From Minisyncoccota bacterium (GTDB lineage: Bacteria > Patescibacteriota > Minisyncoccia > Phycocordibacterales > UBA5272): 64,000 bases of DNA. A program made the translations under genes and the position numbers. Below, piece by piece: positions 4,078 through 62,792 of this stretch. The notes beneath the pieces were generated by a model. The model was not told the DNA's origin, searched no databases, and saw only the letters and a program-made list of their open reading frames with translations. How positions within the stretch are numbered: position 1 is the first letter of the stretch; each line of letters begins with the position of its first letter. Where the stretch lies: contig JBAZJW010000001.1 of assembly GCA_041651055.1 (NCBI GenBank), forward strand, positions 691,702-755,701. The letters are read 5' to 3'.

Positions 4078-4170
4078 AGATTTTAGATTTTAGATTTTGG
4101 ACTTTAGATATATTGCATAAAGTAATGTATCGAGTCTCATCTAAAATCTAAAGTCTAATCTCTAACATCT
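4078..4170. repeat. Palindromic intergenic element built from 7-bp TAGATTT / AAATCTA units (family copy 1), abutting rpsB start codon
   Basis: Left arm agattttagattttagattttggactttagat. Right arm atctaaaatctaaagtctaatctctaacatct ends directly at the ATG 4171. Confidence 0.7.
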
Positions 4171-4848
4171 ATGTCAAACATCAATAAAGAAGCTCTTGCA
4201 AAAGCAGGCCTCCAATACGGCTACTCACGTACTCGTCGTCATCCATCAGTAAAGCCTTTTATCGAAGGTAATTACAACAATGTTGACTTTATCAACCTCG
4301 ACACAACAAAGACTCAGCTTGAAAACGCTACCGCGTTCCTCGCCTCAATGCACGCTGCAGGAAAGGTTATTTTGTTCGTTGGTGTTAAACCAGAAATCCG
4401 CCAAATCGTAAAAGAAGTAGCACTTTCACTCAACGCTCCATACATCGCTGAACGTTTCATCGGTGGAACACTTACAAACTTCCCACAAATCAAGAAGCGT
4501 ATCGAAAAGCTTCATGATCTTTTGAAGAAGAAAGAAACAGGTGAACTCGCTGTGTACACAAAGAAAGAACAGCTTCTCATCCAGCGTGATATCGATAGAT
4601 TGGACCGTGACTTCGGAGGCATCTCTTCACTTACAAATATTCCTTCAGCTATTGTCATGATCGACTCTCGTCATGAAGATATGTGTCTCAAAGAAGCAAA
4701 GCGTCTCCACATCCCTGTGGTTGCACTTTGTAATACTGACTGTACACTGGAAGGTATCGAGTATCCTGTTGTCGGTAATGACGGATCTGTAGCGTCTGTA
4801 CGTTTCGTACTCGAAACAATCAAAGAAGCTCTCGCTACGACAGCGTAA
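4171..4848 (+). CDS. rpsB: 30S ribosomal protein S2
   Basis: Characteristic S2 N-terminus (AGLQYGYSRTRRHP...) and length. Confidence 0.9.
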   Translation: MSNINKEALAKAGLQYGYSRTRRHPSVKPFIEGNYNNVDFINLDTTKTQLENATAFLASMHAAGKVILFVGVKPEIRQIVKEVALSLNAPYIAERFIGGTLTNFPQIKKRIEKLHDLLKKKETGELAVYTKKEQLLIQRDIDRLDRDFGGISSLTNIPSAIVMIDSRHEDMCLKEAKRLHIPVVALCNTDCTLEGIEYPVVGNDGSVASVRFVLETIKEALATTA

Positions 4849-5798: not shown

Positions 5799-5922
5799 GC
5801 CTGTTTCAAAATTGACGATCTGCTTGTTATTTTTAAGAAAAAGTGTTTCAACGTACACATTAGTACGTCTCCAAACTTTTTCTTAAAAACAACTGCGCAT
5901 CTCATTCAATTTTGAAACAGGC
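5799..5922. repeat. Intergenic element bounded by perfect 16-bp inverted repeat GCCTGTTTCAAAATTG / CAATTTTGAAACAGGC; internal motif shared with 98..215
   Basis: Arms at 5799..5814 and 5907..5922. The interior carries CCAAACTTTTTCTTAA..CTGCGCAT, which recurs at 103..137, plus hairpin CAACGTAC..GTACGTCTCC. Confidence 0.65.
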
Positions 5923-26565: not shown

Positions 26566-28611
26566 ATGCAAGAAAAGATTTCTTCGTTTTTACGTATCAA
26601 ATGGGCCCTTCTTCTGTATACAGGTGTTAGTATTGTTTGTGCACTTTCTCTTTCTTTCTATGCACAAGATGTCGGCCTTCGTCTATTTGATTTTGTTGCA
26701 CAAAACCAAGAAAAGAAATTAATAACCTATTTACGTACCGAAGGGGATTCAATTATAGAAAAAGTATCCACATTCAGTGCGAGAGATGATGTTAAAGAGT
26801 CTTTGCGTCAGAAAGATGTATCAAGACTTACAGAACTTTTGGAACAAGCAAAGATATCCACGGGACTTATGGCCTTCACAGCGGCAGATGCTCAAGGTGT
26901 TGCATTATCTCGTTTTCCCGTAAAAGCAAACCTTGGGGATAATGTGTTTCTTACACTTCCGATCGGGAGAATCGCTTCACAAGGGGCGACAGCTATTACC
27001 TATGGTCCAGGAAGAAACTTTTCTTTAACCATGGCGTCAGGCCATTTGGTTCAAGACAAAGGAATTCTTCTCGGTGCAGTTTTTGGAGGACATTGGTTCA
27101 ATAGTTCTTATGCAAAAGCTTTCAAAACAAATTATCTGAGCTCTTTTTTGAAACAAGAAGTCATTTTTTATTCGAAAGAAGAAGGAATGACCGGGAGTAG
27201 TTTTGAGAGTATAGATGTTCAAAATAAGCTCAGTACATACGTGACACATGCCTCACCACTTATTCAGGAGGGGAGATCGGGAGACTTGATAAACATTAAT
27301 GGAAAGGATTATATAGTGACGAACCATCTTCTTTCTGGAGGCGAAGAAGTGTATGGAGGAATTCTCTTGCTCACTCCTTTACCAAAGACTCTTTTGTTTA
27401 GAAGTTTAGTTATGTCTTTTGTGCTAACACTCCTTTTCCTCATCAGTCTTCTTCTTGTTGAAAAAGTTACCGTGCCAGAACTTTTACGGTTTAAGAAAAA
27501 GCACTTATATTGGCTTCTCCTTATTCTTTCATTGATTGTTTTAGTTACGTTGTGGATGGGGATATATCTTCACGGAAAGTCAGCAACGATGCAATTGGAT
27601 AAGCCAAAGTTTGCCATATATAATTCAACTATAAAGTTACGACCTGAGGCCGGGGTGTACACCATGGGGCATACACAACAGGTTTCTATTGTTGTTTCTT
27701 CTGGTGGGGAAGAGATAAATGCTGTGAAGGTTGGTTTACATTTTAATCCAAAAGTAATTCATGTCGACTCAGTTTCTTTTGATCGATCGATTTGTACACC
27801 AGAAACAATTATTGAGAACAATATTGATAATACAGAAGGAACTATTTCAGTTTCTTGCGTCATCACAGAAAAAGTATTCTCGGATATACGAGGGGTTGTC
27901 GCTGATATTAATTTTACACCAGTCAAATTTGGCGACGCAGCTATTACCTTTACTGACGATACTCACGTGCTTGCTGCAGACGGGCTCGGCACAGAAGTTC
28001 TTCGTTCGATGACGTCTGGTTTTTATAGAGTTTTTGATGATAAAGATTTAGAGGATTCTTTTTCTAAAAATACGCTTATCATTCCCTACTCTCCTACGCA
28101 TGAAAATAGTTCTAGATGGTATAGTAGCAACAACATAACCGTAGCGTGGCCAAAAGTAGAAGGAGCAGACTATCTCTATGAATTTTCAGAAGATGCAACG
28201 ACGACATTCAGTAATCCAAAGAAGATACATGCCAATGAAATTAAAATAGTGGCCCCTCATGATGGTGTATATTATTTTAAACTTGCAGCAAAGAAGGGTG
28301 ATGTCGAAGGTCTTATATCGCGTCTTAAGATTAAGATAGATACAACAGCTCCAGGTATTCCTTTGATTAAGGTAAGTAATCTTTCTGTCATAAAAGATAA
28401 TGTTGTACGTTTTGAATTAAGTTCAGATGACGAGTCTAGTGGTTTGCAAAAGAATTTTTATGTACAGGTTGATGGTAGTGTTTGGTTGCCGTCATTTGCG
28501 AAGTTATATATGCCTTTCCATGATAAAGGTAGTCACATTGTAGGGGTGAGAGTCTTTGATAATGCGGAAAACTATTCTGAGTCGGAAGTGAGAATTCGTG
28601 TTAAAAATTAA
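26566..28611 (+). CDS. Large membrane protein with N-terminal sensor-like extracytoplasmic domain and C-terminal beta-sandwich (Ig/Fn3-like) repeats
   Basis: TM1, about 250-aa domain, TM2-3, then 340-aa beta-rich region; no catalytic motif recognised. Confidence 0.55.
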   Translation: MQEKISSFLRIKWALLLYTGVSIVCALSLSFYAQDVGLRLFDFVAQNQEKKLITYLRTEGDSIIEKVSTFSARDDVKESLRQKDVSRLTELLEQAKISTGLMAFTAADAQGVALSRFPVKANLGDNVFLTLPIGRIASQGATAITYGPGRNFSLTMASGHLVQDKGILLGAVFGGHWFNSSYAKAFKTNYLSSFLKQEVIFYSKEEGMTGSSFESIDVQNKLSTYVTHASPLIQEGRSGDLININGKDYIVTNHLLSGGEEVYGGILLLTPLPKTLLFRSLVMSFVLTLLFLISLLLVEKVTVPELLRFKKKHLYWLLLILSLIVLVTLWMGIYLHGKSATMQLDKPKFAIYNSTIKLRPEAGVYTMGHTQQVSIVVSSGGEEINAVKVGLHFNPKVIHVDSVSFDRSICTPETIIENNIDNTEGTISVSCVITEKVFSDIRGVVADINFTPVKFGDAAITFTDDTHVLAADGLGTEVLRSMTSGFYRVFDDKDLEDSFSKNTLIIPYSPTHENSSRWYSSNNITVAWPKVEGADYLYEFSEDATTTFSNPKKIHANEIKIVAPHDGVYYFKLAAKKGDVEGLISRLKIKIDTTAPGIPLIKVSNLSVIKDNVVRFELSSDDESSGLQKNFYVQVDGSVWLPSFAKLYMPFHDKGSHIVGVRVFDNAENYSESEVRIRVKN

Positions 28612-28898
28612 TGATCGCTCCATCATTTAAAGAGAGGGTTCTTACTATTGTCAGGGAAATTCCCAAGGGAAGAGTCCTTTCGTATGGTGAGGTAGCGAAG
28701 TGTGCTGGTAGTCCTCAGGCTTTTCGTGCTGTGGGGACGGTGTTGGCAAAAAATGAGGATGTATCGGTGCCGTGTCATCGTGTTATACGATCTGATGGGC
28801 ATGCTGGTACCTATAATGGATTACAAGGAAAGAGTAAAGAAGCTGTTTTGCGTAGTGAAGGGGTAATCTTTGATAAAAATAATAAGGTGGTAGTATAG
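28611..28898 (+). CDS. MGMT-family DNA-binding domain protein (O6-alkylguanine-DNA alkyltransferase C-terminal domain only)
   Basis: VPCHRVIRSDG contains the PCHR active-site signature; 95 aa. Confidence 0.75.
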   Translation: MIAPSFKERVLTIVREIPKGRVLSYGEVAKCAGSPQAFRAVGTVLAKNEDVSVPCHRVIRSDGHAGTYNGLQGKSKEAVLRSEGVIFDKNNKVVV

Positions 28899-28902
28899 GT
28901 AG

Positions 28903-29373
28903 ATGAAAATTGCTGTCCTTGATAACCTCCGCTCTGTGCACAATGTCGGTTCTATTTTTAGAACTTGTAATGCTGTTGGAATAGAAAAGATATATTTGTG
29001 TGGTACGACACCGACTCCTTTAGATAAAAAGGGGGGCAGAAGAAAAGATTTTGCAAAGGTGGCGCTTGGTGCGGAAGATACTGTCCTCTGGGAATATATC
29101 GAGAGCACTGCTTCATGTATTGATACTCTTAGTGCGACAGGTTTTTACTGTATTGCTCTTGAACAAGCTGACACTTCTGTTGACTATAAAAATGTCGATG
29201 TCACGGGAAAAGAAAATATTGCTTTTATTATTGGGAATGAAGTTGATGGCATTTTGCCAGACGTTGTTTCGAAATGTGACGTGGTTGCAGAAATTCCTAT
29301 GCTTGGCACGAAAGAATCTCTGAATGTTACCATTGCTTTTGGTATCGCGGTGTACAGAATTCTCGGTATTTAG
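28903..29373 (+). CDS. SpoU/TrmH-family RNA 2'-O-methyltransferase (TrmL-sized)
   Basis: SPOUT motifs: N-terminal VHNVGSIFRTCNAVGI, IIGNEVDG, and C-terminal SLNVTIAFGIAVYR; 156 aa. Confidence 0.8.
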   Translation: MKIAVLDNLRSVHNVGSIFRTCNAVGIEKIYLCGTTPTPLDKKGGRRKDFAKVALGAEDTVLWEYIESTASCIDTLSATGFYCIALEQADTSVDYKNVDVTGKENIAFIIGNEVDGILPDVVSKCDVVAEIPMLGTKESLNVTIAFGIAVYRILGI

Positions 29374-29509
29374 ACTCATCTTTGGTATATCGTGTGAAAG
29401 ATCGAGAAAGGATGTGTCGTCTTTTGTTACAGCAACCCAGCTCTCTTTTTTGTAAAGACATTTTCTAAATGAGTGAGTCATTGCATGGCTTTTTCTGTCC
29501 ACCTTTTAC

Positions 29510-29545
29510 TGTTGCGCAACTCCTAAACTAGCAGGATAATGAAAC
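29510..29545 (+). promoter_or_regulatory. Putative promoter TTGCGC-N17-GATAAT upstream of nrdD
   Basis: -35/-10 spacing 17 nt about 45 nt upstream of ATG 29583. Confidence 0.35.
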
Positions 29546-29582
29546 TATAGGGAGGTTATTATTCACGTTATATTTTATTGTC

Positions 29583-31748
29583 ATGCTTACAACCATCATC
29601 AAAAGAACAGGGGAAAAGGAAACTTTCGAGAAGGCAAAAATTACAAAAGCACTTACTAAAGCTGGTGCCGCAACTAAAGAATTTAATGATGAGCAGGCAA
29701 TTATATTAACGGAAAAAGTAATCGCATACCTCGAAGGAAAAGTTCATAATGGTATTGCTCAAATAGAACAAGTGCAAGATGCTGTTGAGCATGTCTTGAT
29801 GACATCTCGTTACAAAGCAACAGCTAAGGCCTATATTCTCTACCGTGAACAGCATGCTGAGATGCGGTCATTTGCTACGATGTCCTCACTTGGTTTGGTA
29901 GATAATTACTTGGACAAGCTCGATTGGCAAGTGAAGGAAAACAGTAACATGGGGTACTCATTACAAGGGCTCAACAATTATATTTTTTCTGAAGTAAGTA
30001 AAACATACTGGCTCAACAAAATTTATCCACAAGAAATTCGTACAGCGTATGAAAATGGCGACCTCCATATTCACGATCTTGGAACACTTTCGATTTATTG
30101 TGTTGGGTGGGATTTAACTGACTTGCTCACGGTTGGCTTTAAGGGTGTGTCTGACAAAATAGAATCAGCACCACCAAAACATTTTCGCACCGCACTCGGT
30201 CAAATTGTAAACTTCATGTACACCATGCAAGGTGAGGCTGCAGGAGCAATTGCATTTTCAAACTTCGATACATTGCTCGCACCGTTTATTCGCTATGACA
30301 AACTCTCTCAAGGAGAAGTGAAGCAGGCGATTCAGGAATTCGTCTTTAACATGAACGTACCGACACGTGTAGGATTCCAGACACCATTTTCAAATATCAC
30401 ACTTGATCTTACGCCGTCCGTAAACTTCAAAAACCTGCCCGCTATTATCGGAGGTAAACCACAAGCAGAAACGTATGGAGATTTTCAGGAAGAAATGGAC
30501 ATGTTCAACGAAGCTTTTTTCGCCGTCATGGCAGAAGGAGATTCGGCAGGACGAGTATTTTCATTCCCGATTCCAACCGTCAATATCACAAAAGATTTTA
30601 ATTGGGAAAACCCAAAGCTAAAAGGGTTATGGGAAATTACAGCGAAGTACGGTATTCCATACTTCAGTAATTTCGTGACATCGGATATGAAACCAGAAGA
30701 TACACGGTCCATGTGTTGTCGTCTTCGCCTTGATCTCGAAGAATTGGATCGTCGAGGAGGAGGACTCTTTGGAGCAAATGCGCTCACTGGCTCTGTGGGG
30801 GTTGTGACGATCAACTTGCCACGTATCGCGTACCTCGCGAAGTCAAAGCACGGGAGTTCTCTTGATGAAGCAAAGACGGCTTTTTATGAACGACTCGACG
30901 CACAAATGGATATCGCAAAAGAAAGTCTGGAAATCAAGAGAAAGTTACTCGAGAAATTAACCGATGCGAATCTCTACCCATACACAAAGTTTTATTTGAG
31001 AAATATTAAAAAATCATTTGGCCAGTATTGGACGAATCACTTTTCTACGATTGGACTTATCGGTATGAATGAAGTGACCCTAAACTTGTTCGGAGAAAAC
31101 ATCGGAAGCAAAGTAGGGCGACAGTTCGCAGGTGAAGTACTTGATCATATGCGCCACCGCTTGATCGGCTATCAGCACGAAACCGGGAATCTTTACAACC
31201 TCGAAGCTACCCCTGCCGAAGGAGTGACGTATCGTTTTGCTTCTCGTGATAAAAAAGTGTATCCGGATATTATTGTCGCCAATGAAGCAGAAACCAAAAA
31301 AGGAGCACAACCATTCTATACGAACTCATCACATTTACCAGTGAATTACACACAGGATATTGTTGAGACGCTTGATATTCAAGATGGTCTACAAACAAAG
31401 TACACAGGAGGAACGGTTATTCATCTTTTCTTGGGTGAACGTGTATCGGACTATCGAGCTGTTCCGAATCTTGTAAAGAAAATTTGTGAAAATTACAAAT
31501 TGCCATACTTTACGATTACGCCGACATTCAGTGTATGTTCTGCGCATGGCTATGTTGCTGGAGAACATTTCAAGTGCCCAACATGTAATACCAATTGTGA
31601 AGTGTATTCACGTATCGTCGGCTACTTGCGTCCAGTGAGTCAGTGGAATGAAGCCAAGCAAGCAGAATATGATATACGAGAAATGTATATACCAGAAAGT
31701 GTACCTGCTCATGCCGAAGCAATGAAGGTGCTACAAGCGAGCGCATAA
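29583..31748 (+). CDS. nrdD: Anaerobic ribonucleoside-triphosphate reductase (class III)
   Basis: N-terminal ATP-cone (IIKRTGEKETFEKAKI); C-terminal Cys4 site CPTCNTNC and glycyl-radical loop SRIVGYLRP. Confidence 0.9.
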   Translation: MLTTIIKRTGEKETFEKAKITKALTKAGAATKEFNDEQAIILTEKVIAYLEGKVHNGIAQIEQVQDAVEHVLMTSRYKATAKAYILYREQHAEMRSFATMSSLGLVDNYLDKLDWQVKENSNMGYSLQGLNNYIFSEVSKTYWLNKIYPQEIRTAYENGDLHIHDLGTLSIYCVGWDLTDLLTVGFKGVSDKIESAPPKHFRTALGQIVNFMYTMQGEAAGAIAFSNFDTLLAPFIRYDKLSQGEVKQAIQEFVFNMNVPTRVGFQTPFSNITLDLTPSVNFKNLPAIIGGKPQAETYGDFQEEMDMFNEAFFAVMAEGDSAGRVFSFPIPTVNITKDFNWENPKLKGLWEITAKYGIPYFSNFVTSDMKPEDTRSMCCRLRLDLEELDRRGGGLFGANALTGSVGVVTINLPRIAYLAKSKHGSSLDEAKTAFYERLDAQMDIAKESLEIKRKLLEKLTDANLYPYTKFYLRNIKKSFGQYWTNHFSTIGLIGMNEVTLNLFGENIGSKVGRQFAGEVLDHMRHRLIGYQHETGNLYNLEATPAEGVTYRFASRDKKVYPDIIVANEAETKKGAQPFYTNSSHLPVNYTQDIVETLDIQDGLQTKYTGGTVIHLFLGERVSDYRAVPNLVKKICENYKLPYFTITPTFSVCSAHGYVAGEHFKCPTCNTNCEVYSRIVGYLRPVSQWNEAKQAEYDIREMYIPESVPAHAEAMKVLQASA

Positions 31749-36552: not shown

Positions 36553-37188
36553 ATGTCCCATCCGTATTGCACATACGTCGCAGCTATTACTGATGAGAGT
36601 GATGTCGACAAAATATATCATGACAATCACTACGGTGTACGAATAGACAGTGACAATGAGCTCTTTTGTCGTCTAGTGATGGAAATCAATCAAGCCGGGC
36701 TTTCGTGGCATACTATTCTTGTAAAAGAGAAACATTTTAGAAAGGCATATAGTAATTTTGATATTACAAAAGTCGCACGATATGGTGAGGAAGATTTCGG
36801 GCGGCTAATGAGTGATGCTGGAATTATTCGAAATCGTTTGAAAATACATGCGGCGATACATAACGCGAAGCAATTGCTCGCCATTCAAAAAGAGTTTGGA
36901 AGTTTTAGGAACTGGCTTGATGTACAAAAGAAGGAAATTGAATTAGGTATCTTTGTCATTCCCGCGAAGGCGGGAATCCAGTGTCTTGAATCTATGAATA
37001 CTAACCTGGATTCCCGCCTTCGCGGGAATGACAATACGGAAACAAAAAATGAAATCAAAAAACTTTGGCTCAAACTTTTTAAAAAGAATTTTAAATTCGT
37101 CGGTGGAGAAATAGTCGGAGAATTTTTGATGAGTATAGACATGCTTCCTGGGTCACACGATAAGAATTGTGAAGTCAGTAAGCAGTAA
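36553..37188 (+). CDS. tag: DNA-3-methyladenine glycosylase I, with an 82-84-bp palindromic in-frame insertion
   Basis: Tag motifs YHDNHYGVRIDSDNELFCRLVMEINQAGLSWHTIL and C-terminal FVGGEIVGEFLMSIDMLPGSHDKNCEV; 211 aa versus about 187 typical. Confidence 0.8.
   Translation: MSHPYCTYVAAITDESDVDKIYHDNHYGVRIDSDNELFCRLVMEINQAGLSWHTILVKEKHFRKAYSNFDITKVARYGEEDFGRLMSDAGIIRNRLKIHAAIHNAKQLLAIQKEFGSFRNWLDVQKKEIELGIFVIPAKAGIQCLESMNTNLDSRLRGNDNTETKNEIKKLWLKLFKKNFKFVGGEIVGEFLMSIDMLPGSHDKNCEVSKQ
36953..37034. repeat. Perfect 29-bp inverted repeat pair separated by 24 bp, GC-rich, inserted in frame inside tag
   Basis: ttgtcattcccgcgaaggcgggaatccag ... ctggattcccgccttcgcgggaatgacaa (exact reverse complements); each arm also self-folds (attcccgc-gaag-gcgggaat). 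Confidence 0.85.
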
Positions 37189-51643: not shown

Positions 51644-51794
51644 TCTTTATCCAGGCTCGGCTATGAGTTTCATCTTGTCGCTCTTAGCTCCTTGAACTGT
51701 ACCCATTCAGCTTATTGTAGGACACGCAGATATCGTACTGTCCAAGCACAAAATACAAAAAGCGATATCATATGACATCGCTTTTTGTATTTTG

Positions 51795-51867
51795 TGCTTG
51801 GACCCAGGCTCGAACTGGGGACCTATTCCTCTTCAGGGAAGCGCTCTACCAACTGAGCTATCCAAGC
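51795..51867 (-). tRNA. tRNA-Phe (anticodon GAA)
   Basis: Minus-strand fold: acceptor GCTTGGA/TCCAAGC, D GCTC-AGTTGGTA-GAGC, anticodon loop CTGAAGA, T-arm CCCAG-TTCGAGC-CTGGG, discriminator A. Confidence 0.8.
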
Positions 51868-52508: not shown

Positions 52509-52580
52509 GCCCTCGTAGTTCAATGGATAGAACAGTTTCGTCCTAAGAAATTGATGTGGGTCCGATTCCTGCCGAGGGCA
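52509..52580 (+). tRNA. tRNA-Arg (anticodon CCT) with atypical T-arm
   Basis: Acceptor GCCCTCG/CGAGGGC, D GTTC-AATGGATA-GAAC, anticodon stem GTTTC/GAAAT with loop GTCCTAA. T-stem GTGGG/CCTGC has two G-U pairs, and the T-loop is TCCGATT (C at the usually invariant U55). Confidence 0.6.
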
Positions 52581-52765
52581 CTATAAGTAAAACACCTTCA
52601 AGTAATCTTGTGGGTGTTTTACTTATAGCTGTTTATAGGAACAAGTTAGCCTGCGCTGACTTGTGACAGGAATCGGATACGGGGTCGAGGAGTCTCCTGT
52701 TTCGAGTGAAGCGAGAAACGAGACGAGGTGACCGAAAATGTACTCATGGTTCCTGCCGAGGGCAC
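52581..52765 (+). repeat. tRNA-Arg-associated element A: 16-bp perfect hairpin, CUGC-loop hairpin, 68-nt conserved core, then 16-bp direct repeat of the tRNA 3' end
   Basis: Hairpin CTATAAGTAAAACACC...GGTGTTTTACTTATAG at 52581..52628; GTTAGC-CTGC-GCTGAC at 52645..52660; core at 52666..52733; ttcctgccgagggcac at 52566..52581 and again at 52750..52765. Confidence 0.75.
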
Positions 52766-56596: not shown

Positions 56597-57127
56597 ATGC
56601 TAAGCAAACAGTCAACCCTCCTCAAAAAAGGATCAAAGAAAGTCATCGAAAAAGTGAAGAAACTCTCGCCGAATACTAAGCAATTACCAGACCACCACTT
56701 TAAGGCAGTGAAAGTGAAGCGTGGATTGGATGGGCTCGGTCTTTTTGCAGAAGAACAAATCAAAAAAGGGGAAATGATTATCGAATATATCGGCAATATT
56801 CTTACCAAAGAAGAGGCGGATAAGAAGACGACAAGTCAGTATCTTTTTGAGGTGAGTAGAAATAAAACTATTGACGGAACGCCGAGATGGAATATTGCAC
56901 GATATTGTAATCATGCGTGCAACGAAGCGGCGAATGCCGAGAGTGATATCACAAAGGGTCGCGTCATCATTAAGGCGATCAAGACCATTAATATAGGCGA
57001 TGAGATTGTGTATGATTACGGAGAAGAGTTTGTGAAAGAGCACATCGCACCGCACGGATGTCGATGTAAAGCAAAAAAGCACGCGTATGGAATGGAGGGA
57101 GGAGATGAGTCAGATGTTAGAAATTAG
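56597..57127 (+). CDS. SET-domain protein-lysine methyltransferase
   Basis: GLGLFAEEQIKKGEMIIEYIG, NHACNEAAN (NHSC-type motif), GDEIVYDYGEEF, and post-SET-like CRCKAK cysteines. Confidence 0.75.
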   Translation: MLSKQSTLLKKGSKKVIEKVKKLSPNTKQLPDHHFKAVKVKRGLDGLGLFAEEQIKKGEMIIEYIGNILTKEEADKKTTSQYLFEVSRNKTIDGTPRWNIARYCNHACNEAANAESDITKGRVIIKAIKTINIGDEIVYDYGEEFVKEHIAPHGCRCKAKKHAYGMEGGDESDVRN

Positions 57128-57243
57128 ATTTTAGACTTTAGAGTATACAAATACGATATGAGACAAAAAGCGGCCACAAAGTGGCCGCTTTTTGTGTTTT
57201 TGCGTTGTCCTCTAACGTCTAAAATCTAATACCTAAAATCTAT
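57125..57243. repeat. TAGATTT-unit palindromic element (family copy 3) with an embedded terminator hairpin; its first TAG is the SET gene stop codon
   Basis: Left arm tagattttagactttagag at 57125..57143; centre AAAAAGCGGCCAC-AAA-GTGGCCGCTTTTTG; right arm cctctaacgtctaaaatctaatacctaaaatctat. Confidence 0.7.
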
Positions 57244-57601: not shown

Positions 57602-57875
57602 CTGGGCATAATCATCTCATTTGCTTCGTTGGGTAATATTTTTTCTCCCGCAATGTACTATTCGTACATCTTGGTCGAAAAAATATTACCCGCCTTGCAA
57701 CTAAGACAATTTCTGCCCAGAAATTTTCGAATAAAATCATTCCATAAACAATGACGGTCATTGTTTTTTTGAATATTGAATATTGTCTCCATTATATATT
57801 CCACTCTTTCTTTCTTATTTTGTTCTCTCTAAAAATGAAGGCAAAAGCTTGTAAATATGCTATAATCTATCAACT

Positions 57876-62572: not shown

Positions 62573-62644
62573 GGCCTTATCGTCTATCGGTTAGGACACA
62601 GGCTTCTCATGCCTGGAAGCGGAGTTCGATTCTCCGTAAGGTCA
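62573..62644 (+). tRNA. tRNA-Glu (anticodon CTC)
   Basis: Acceptor GGCCTTA/TAAGGTC (one G-U), D GTC-loop-GAC, anticodon stem CAGGC/GCCTG with loop TTCTCAT, T-arm CGGAG-TTCGATT-CTCCG, discriminator A. Confidence 0.75.
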
Positions 62645-62792
62645 CATCAACAAAAATACACAGGTTCTTCCTGTGTATTTTTGTTGACTGTGATCAGTAG
62701 AAGCAAACCACCTGCGTGGTTTGCGGGAGAATCGAATACGGGGTCGCGGAACTACTTCGAGCAAAGCGAGGTAGTTCTGTGACCGGTTCTCC
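62645..62792 (+). repeat. tRNA-Glu-associated element B (second copy of the family at 52581..52765)
   Basis: 17-bp perfect hairpin CAACAAAAATACACAGG-TTCTTC-CCTGTGTATTTTTGTTG at 62649..62688; GCAAACCAC-CTGC-GTGGTTTGC at 62703..62724; 68-nt core at 62725..62792. Confidence 0.75.

Follow-up and report, generated by a model that had tools for sequence, protein, structure and literature searches.

The window analyzed here is a 64,000-nucleotide stretch of contig JBAZJW010000001.1 from a Minisyncoccota bacterium, in which the gene for 3-methyladenine DNA glycosylase I, tag, contains a long perfect palindrome that is read through in frame. The host open reading frame (ORF) is intact, lies on the plus strand at 36553..37188 and encodes 211 amino acids. 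Comparison with published repeats, other genomes and related tag genes indicated that the palindrome is a doublet of Ssn-related motifs (SRM), hairpin repeats associated with a family of nucleases that target single-stranded DNA (ssDNA).

The palindrome and its host gene

The arms of the palindrome are 29 nt long (36953-36981, TTGTCATTCCCGCGAAGGCGGGAATCCAG, and 37006-37034), are 100% complementary and are separated by a 24-nt spacer (36982..37005, plus strand). Each arm holds its own hairpin with an 8-bp stem and a 4-nt loop (36958-36977 and 37010-37029), which confirmed the exact inverted repeat with nested hairpins described in an earlier sequence-only reading of this DNA. When up to three mismatches were allowed, the arm 22-mer was found at two places only in the window against an expectation of 0.00 from 100 shuffles of the window. 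The 82-nt element alone folds at -58.6 kcal/mol with a 29-bp perfect stem, and the RNA fold of a 111-nt region reached -61 kcal/mol (z = -11.6). A search of Rfam gave sub-threshold matches only, to miRNA-precursor hairpins, a generic result for a long stem.

An assembly artifact was ruled out by the presence of related doublets in independent assemblies from ENA, JGI, NCBI, and Logan. The 29-nt unit with its hairpin could be mistaken for a CRISPR repeat, but just two inverted copies were present and the spacing elsewhere was irregular. A terminator was also ruled out, as a T-run is absent and the element lies inside an ORF.

The window ORF was assigned to Tag (DNA-3-methyladenine glycosylase I) by its Pfam domain, predicted fold and conserved residues. 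Its product is identical to a protein annotated in a Candidatus Paceibacterota metagenome-assembled genome. It matched PF03352 with E = 5e-39, and its top PDB sequence matches were the Tag structures 1LMZ and 2OFK. An AlphaFold2 model with 120 sequences as input had a mean predicted local distance difference test score (pLDDT) of 85, and Foldseek matched the model to 2OFK and 4AIA with a probability of 1.0 and target-normalized template modeling scores of 0.72-0.75. Residues C6, H23, H202, C206, E44, and W52 were invariant in 120 Tag homologues. We take the first four to align with the zinc ligands of Escherichia coli Tag and the other invariant residues to align with its base-binding pocket. 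The frame is open across the repeat and the C-terminal block (FKFVGGEIVGEFLMS...H202...C206) resumes downstream, as the sequence-only reading had stated.

The loop that hosts the palindrome was surveyed as the segment between D123 and W172 in the 120 best Tag homologues. This loop has 12 residues in 82 of the 120, in place of which the window protein has 48 (residues 124-171, encoded by 36922..37065, plus strand). The window loop has 36 extra residues, not the 28 or so first supposed, and about 27 of these are encoded by the 82-nt palindrome. Residues 141-158 (36973..37026, plus strand) have a pLDDT below 50 and are predicted to form a disordered excursion between helices 118-134 and 161-179, so that the insert falls in a surface loop of the model. 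Because these low-confidence residues lie between helices, the region is also length-variable in comparison with E. coli Tag, and the zinc and pocket residues are invariant, the model indicates that the insert is a tolerated surface excursion of Tag, predicted to be disordered. When the 28-nt motif of the arms is translated in six frames, five have no stop codon, which makes in-frame read-through of the motif easy.

Ssn-related motifs in the arms and in other genomes

The Ssn nucleases are a family of small GIY-YIG enzymes with an ssDNA target (Nat Commun 2025, PMC11893778). The hairpins they recognize include the 28-nt Neisseria Transformation Sequence (NTS; CGTCATTCCCGCGMAVGCGGGAATCYRG) and other SRMs, for which a degenerate pattern, HGTCWYN(0-2)YYVSBRHN(0-5)WNVSBRGN(0-2)RNCYNB, was published (PMC11893778). 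These hairpins are directional, and in Neisseria SsnA (approximately 94 amino acids; GIY-YIG, cd10448) binds them and cuts upstream of them in ssDNA only, not in double-stranded DNA or RNA (PMC11893778). The ssn gene typically has SRMs on its flanks, and NTS copies are rarely genic (2% in Neisseria meningitidis 8013) (PMC11893778).

The window arm (TGTCATTCCCGCGAAGGCGGGAATCCAG) agreed with the NTS consensus at 27 of 28 positions, the mismatch being a first base T and not C; the published NTS searches tolerated one mismatch (PMC11893778). The dRS3 core, ATTCCC-N8-GGGAAT, is exact in each arm. Both arms matched the SRM pattern, at 36954-36981 on the plus strand and at 37006-37033 on the minus strand, and these were the sole matches in the window (shuffles gave 0-1), so the earlier claim of a single copy in the window is true for the arm with mismatches and for the pattern. 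The left motif has its motif sense on the coding strand and is translated as VIPAKAGIQ; its hairpin (36958..36977, plus strand; ATTCCCGC-GAAG-GCGGGAAT) holds the dRS3 core. The right motif has its motif sense on the template strand and reads LDSRLRGND on the plus strand. The window arms thus show the hairpin palindrome with conserved, orientation-giving flanks that characterizes SRMs. By sequence, each arm is a complete 28-nt SRM of NTS/dRS3 type, and the two together make up the palindrome as a convergent doublet.

The same arm is present in many other genomes. Its exact 27-mer was found in 74 IMG/VR stretches and the exact 28-mer in at least 120 stretches of species-representative genomes from many phyla, including about 19 loci of the candidate phyla radiation (CPR) among the matches listed; the contig of the window was not itself in that list. 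The hosts of the 28-mer include Zixibacteria, Planctomycetota, Nitrospirota, Chloroflexota, several proteobacterial classes, a Rickettsia endosymbiont, Omnitrophota, and Gemmatimonadota. A sample of 194 loci with 371 SRM hits was used to compare the arrangement of the arms. Pairs with a spacer of at most 120 nt were convergent (plus then minus) in 55 cases, divergent in 14, and tandem in 8. The spacers of the 55 short convergent doublets ranged from 0 to 101 nt and were mostly 10-35 nt, as is the 24-nt spacer of the window.

In a second convergent group the arms were 300-326 nt apart, which is roughly the length of an ssn gene, and an Ssn hidden Markov model (HMM) matched between the arms of five convergent pairs. 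A local HMM built from Ssn-like ORFs detected a GIY-YIG gene in 12 of the 194 loci, in most of them immediately beside the arm. The exact arm adjoins Ssn-like GIY-YIG ORFs in viral loci (L008, L017, L033, L041, L048, and L069) and in genome loci (L108, L128, and L207). Because identical arms flank ssn in the same convergent orientation at 300-326 nt, the window element looks like a gene-less miniature of the SRM-ssn-SRM unit.

The spacers of the doublets were unrelated in sequence between loci, and the window spacer was likewise not conserved when Tag alleles and doublets elsewhere were compared. The two arms of a doublet were often different variants, and arms were also found singly, in either orientation. 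Another Paceibacterota metagenome-assembled genome (L200) has an intergenic doublet with exactly identical arms. The motif is mostly intergenic in the CPR loci, beside housekeeping genes. The small ORFs near SRMs in these loci were considered as GIY-YIG candidates and proved to be housekeeping genes (L31, deformylase, riboflavin kinase).

In-frame doublets were also detected in other conserved proteins. The intact ileS gene of the Sphingopyxis indica plasmid pMC4 (L289:1499-4570, RefSeq) contains two, at 2507-2585 and 4193-4271, both with a 23-nt spacer; the first encodes RHPRESGDPERASANPTLDSRFRGND. A Rickettsia endosymbiont likewise carries a doublet in frame in its IleRS (L102:862-4272, minus strand). 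The Rickettsia endosymbiont of Polydrusus tereticollis (L102, L150, L194, and L198) has many convergent 28-mer doublets with 63-82-nt spacers, which form units of 120-140 bp, the size of Rickettsia palindromic elements (RPE). GatB of Candidatus Roizmanbacteria GW2011_GWA2_35_19 (L176:4919-6367, minus strand) carries an in-frame SRM (AVIPAKAGIQ...), counted as a doublet; it is approximately 30 residues longer there than the Pfam GatB_N profile and is a second CPR housekeeping protein with such an insert. A search with the 44-residue insert peptide gave 45 candidates, all hypothetical ORFs of 35-74 amino acids, and missed the Tag homologues, so it was uninformative on other hosts.

The sequence-only reading had likened the palindrome to RPEs and to the Correia elements of Neisseria, and the first comparison was apt. 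The RPEs and the Wolbachia palindromic elements (WPE) are solvent-exposed, in-frame palindromic inserts found at the same locus in orthologues, and ATGAC, the complement of GTCAT, is reported as characteristic of RPE-4, RPE-6, RPE-7, and WPE (PMC10969869, PMC3767692). The window palindrome likewise lies in frame in a housekeeping gene, in a predicted solvent-exposed loop and at the same site in orthologues, and ATGAC/GTCAT forms the outer end of each of its arms. The Rickettsia endosymbiont described above carries the exact 28-mer in its RPE-sized doublets, including the one inside IleRS. In contrast, RPEs are 100-150 bp long and are defined within Rickettsiales, whereas the window element is 82 bp long and lies in a CPR genome, and the sequence likeness noted is that of the short end motif. 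Some RPE families may be SRM doublets. Correia elements are small, inverted-repeat elements that can lie in transcripts, but they are unrelated in sequence to the window element, their terminal inverted repeats are 26 bp long and they duplicate a TA target, whereas each window arm is a complete hairpin repeat of NTS/dRS3 type and target duplication is not evident.

The arms also resemble the repetitive extragenic palindromic (REP) sequences and the bacterial interspersed mosaic elements and REP doublets forming hairpins (REPIN) built from them, which are short repeats, single or in inverted doublets, whose ssDNA hairpins are recognized by a small cognate enzyme with a gene flanked by the repeats. 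That enzyme is an HUH Y1 transposase of IS200/IS605 type, the REP-associated tyrosine transposase (RAYT), whereas the SRM partner is a GIY-YIG Ssn enzyme, and REP sequences are extragenic by definition.

These likenesses bear on whether the doublet is a classical miniature inverted-repeat transposable element (MITE) or REPIN, inserted once by a trans-acting transposase (Correia/RPE-type) or by a RAYT on a REP doublet and then fixed. We consider this unlikely. The inverted-repeat build, the small size, the RPE-like frame and the REPIN-like doublet of inverted hairpin repeats all fit such an origin, but the arms are self-contained SRM units that also occur singly, and their sequence fits an Ssn-associated motif and no described transposase end. 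Pfam matches of the more than 60 window ORFs included no transposase, RAYT, Y1_Tnp, IS110, or integrase family, and the gene that adjoins the arm elsewhere is an Ssn-like GIY-YIG ORF. The SRM-ssn-SRM units with the same arms in other genomes are candidates for the related autonomous element that a MITE has, although Ssn is a nuclease and is not known to act as a transposase. A convincing target duplication was also absent. From the earlier suggestion of a selfish MITE that the protein tolerates, we retain repeat DNA in a permissive, length-variable loop, made up of two independent hairpin repeats and not of a single MITE.

A longer MITE built on the same arms, apparently amplified recently, is what the doublets of Candidatus Hatepunaea meridiana look like (L096, L111, L124, L134, and L168). 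Many are near-identical, with an inverted repeat longer than the SRM, extended ends (cccattt...aaatggg or cccttttt...aaaagggg) and a spacer conserved within each subfamily.

Hairpin conservation and distribution among tag loci

Base-pair covariation was evaluated in 19 Tag-resident arms and in a doublet alignment of nine alleles, with 500 shuffles each. The helix within the arm was paired in 99.3% of the cells over the 19 arms, six of its eight pairs had changed on both sides and none of the 500 shuffles reached its score. The two local hairpins were paired in 97.9% of the cells over the nine alleles, with compensatory changes in 9 of the 16 pairs, and again 0 of 500 shuffles reached the score. 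The left hairpin was 100% paired with four of its eight pairs changed on both sides; the corresponding values for the right hairpin (37010..37029, minus strand) were 95.8% and five of eight. In contrast, the arm-to-arm helix of 29 pairs was paired in 84.7% of the cells vs. a shuffle mean of 84.8%, and 328 of 500 shuffles were as high. Because pairing between the arms equals the shuffle mean, the perfect long palindrome of the window is incidental: its two arms happen to be one variant.

The substitutions in the arms change the encoded peptide (VIPAKAGIQ, VIPVKTGIQ, VILAKAGIQ, VVPMKVGIQ; A to V or T, P to L) and keep the pairing. Since the compensatory changes alter amino acids, the constraint is on the nucleic acid and not on the protein. 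The TGTC sequence 5' of the palindrome was invariant in the Tag-resident arms and the C just 3' of it nearly so, and these positions coincide with the nucleotides reported to govern cleavage and binding by SsnA (PMC11893778).

The sequence-only reading had proposed, as a second possibility, that the palindrome acts as a regulatory hairpin in the mRNA, such as an RNase or riboregulator site. In the tag transcript such a hairpin would control Tag expression through RNase III cleavage, through pausing of the ribosome or as a riboregulator. In favor of this reading, the element folds into a perfect stem of 29 bp (about -59 to -61 kcal/mol), most of the other alleles also have the long hairpin as their minimum-free-energy fold (-27 to -47 kcal/mol), and RNase III is known to act on Correia elements in Neisseria transcripts (PMC10969869). 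However, the covariation places the selected pairs inside each arm and not between the arms. Five arms carry the ATCCTC...GGGGAT variant, and each forms a T.G wobble when read in the motif sense. Two of them are right arms (L077 and L078), whose motif sense is on the template; the mRNA strand has a C.A mismatch there instead, which argues for a strand-specific DNA feature and against an mRNA structure. The motif is mostly intergenic elsewhere and in either orientation, RNA is not a substrate of SsnA (PMC11893778), and an Rfam family match and a terminator tail are both absent. A regulatory role in the mRNA is thus distinctly unlikely.

Doublets in the same loop were not confined to the window. 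Besides the 82 homologues with a 12-residue loop, 26 of the 120 had loops of 17-30 residues. The remaining 12, whose loops were 34-72 residues long, carried SRM-type peptides (VIPAKAGIQ...LDSRLRGND or variants of it). The homologues that share the segment also have palindromic DNA there; no Tag orthologues with the segment and without the palindrome were found among them. A codon alignment of ten insert-bearing alleles and one empty allele showed a convergent SRM doublet at one position in every filled allele. The arms of the doublets in Tag alleles were 3-24 nt apart; arms were rearranged or insertions nested in L085 and L086. Because 11 further Tag homologues have related doublets in this loop, the window insertion is not private or fresh.

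Some loops show further variation. A class of 17-20-residue loops (e.g., TEDKKLKVESGKNSDIKAL) was found in 24 of the 120 homologues (P0013, P0014, P0022, P0047, P0070, P0100, and others); part of it is faintly like the right-arm peptide (..RGND..), and by this resemblance it could be a decayed or deleted doublet remnant. In Tag homologue P0008 (L085:450-1160), both SRM arms are interrupted by extra sequence, including the small hairpin GTCTGCA-GGTAATT-TGCAGAC, which gives a 72-residue loop. Downstream of tag, L085 has an extra 584 nt with a 161-residue RNA_pol_A_CTD ORF that is absent from its close relative L087.

The non-SRM right flank ATACRRAA...GAAATYAAAAA was common to eight filled alleles and was not seen beside doublets elsewhere, which argues for common ancestry of most inserts. 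Identity outside the loop was 80.3% between filled alleles vs. 80.6% between filled and empty alleles, and the nearest neighbor of 9 of the 12 filled alleles was an allele without an SRM doublet (12- or 17-30-residue loop). The filled P0008 and the empty P0035 are 99% identical outside the loop, with surrounding DNA approximately 89% identical. In a comparison of L085 (filled) with L087 (empty) for a co-conversion or recombination tract, divergence beside the loop (5/36) was no higher than that of the 5' part (10.8%). As judged from these sequences, the distribution of the insert is uncoupled from the phylogeny of the Tag backbone; allele transfer by recombination or repeated loss are possible causes of the patchy spread. 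Among the matches listed in a scan of metagenomes for tag, most were distant tag genes without the insert (47-53% identity, one at 65%), and no SRM was found in 217 kb of metagenome DNA of these tag relatives.

An adaptive role, in which the longer loop would equip Tag for a further function (partner binding, for example) and the palindrome would be a relic of its origin, is very unlikely: the frame stays open in 12 alleles with differing insert lengths and flanking residues such as NT(E/K)..NEIKK are common to the filled alleles, but the arm substitutions alter amino acids while keeping the base pairing, the segment is predicted to be disordered, and the 82 close homologues with the 12-residue loop do without it in a distribution uncoupled from the backbone. 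Tag is most likely only a tolerant host of the doublet.

The surroundings of tag differ among relatives. Genes for an Ogt-like DNA_binding_1 protein, a SpoU methylase and nrdD adjoin tag in L077, L078, and L082; in the window the same three genes (28611-31748) lie approximately 5-8 kb upstream of tag, with iron-sulfur cluster and RNase_H_2-family genes between. This change in gene order is a local rearrangement around a DNA-repair gene cluster.

Other palindromes were also present in the window. Three intergenic, imperfect palindromes (2089-2150, 5826-5893, and 57631-57691) have 28-31-nt arms with 81-86% complementarity, are centered on ..AAYGTAC-N5-6-GTACRT.. and could represent a type of terminator or a family of hairpins specific to this genome. 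Strong palindromes at 51740-51803, 52581-52628, and 62647-62687 adjoin tRNA genes (tRNA-Phe, 51794-51867, minus strand; tRNA-Arg, 52509-52581, plus strand; tRNA-Glu, 62573-62645, plus strand) and are most simply tRNA terminators. The first of these is a 64-nt near-perfect palindrome that overlaps the low-coordinate end of tRNA-Phe. Short repeats of the AGATTTTAGA type occur as inverted pairs in the intergenic stretches 4078-4156 and 57112-57241.

Origin and significance of the doublet

The explanation that we favor, with a probability of roughly 0.72, is that an SRM doublet, a gene-less miniature of the SRM-ssn-SRM unit, resides in the Tag loop and is read through in frame. The doublet would be the SRM-ssn-SRM architecture minus its gene, behaving as a miniature, non-autonomous derivative. 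It lies in a naturally length-variable surface loop of Tag, to which it adds a predicted disordered excursion of approximately 36 residues that leaves the catalytic and zinc residues intact. Related doublets are present in this loop in a patchy subset of Paceibacteria-type Tag genes, and the insertion is not fresh. An Ssn-type nuclease or another ssDNA process may recognize the hairpins in this organism and drive their persistence or spread. The sequence data establish what the motif is, how the arms are arranged and distributed, their covariation and the position in the loop; we infer both the role of an Ssn-type enzyme and the way in which the cassette spreads.

Several observations weigh against this explanation. 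No ssn gene was detected in the 64-kb window by tblastn, a local HMM, a motif regular expression or Pfam analysis of more than 60 ORFs, and no further SRM was detected in the window beyond the two arms. Likewise, neither SRMs nor ssn were found in 27.7 kb around the related tag loci. On the evidence of the window and these flanks, SRMs are otherwise rare in these genomes, a scarcity that sits uneasily with the upkeep of the hairpins. Multi-copy SRMs and a cognate nuclease are therefore putative for this genome. The window element thus differs from the described SRM/SsnA systems as a lone doublet, with a first base T, in frame inside a coding sequence of a CPR (Paceibacterota) genome. There was no clean target-site duplication, the best candidate being a 7/10 direct repeat (36933-36942 and 37050-37059), and the closest filled and empty pair differ in the whole loop and show no simple insertion junction. 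The alignment of orthologues called for by the sequence-only reading therefore located the loop and revealed the other filled alleles but gave neither a clean junction nor a duplication.

A bolder version holds that the doublet is a self-maintaining cassette that moves between Paceibacteria tag alleles by homing-like recombination, with selection for its recognizability to an Ssn-type ssDNA nuclease, and that coding palindromes (RPE-4, RPE-6, RPE-7, WPE, and the ileS and gatB inserts) are all SRM doublets. We regard this as tentative and rather doubtful.

The kind of element described here is already known, as SRM repeats and as RPE-like coding palindromes; what is new is the host and the setting. 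The doublet in tag extends the Ssn/SRM hairpin-repeat system to the CPR/Patescibacteria and to coding sequences, and it is a natural example of selection on DNA hairpins inside an ORF, in which base pairs are kept while amino acids change. It also accounts for the recurrent peptides VIPAKAGIQ, LDSRLRGND, and IPAFAGMT as inserts in conserved proteins and for spurious small ORFs in genome annotation. The in-frame doublets suggest that SRMs and the protein-coding palindromic repeats known from Rickettsia and Wolbachia are linked. If true, this link would tie the 25-year-old puzzle of the spread of RPEs into genes to the newly described Ssn nucleases.

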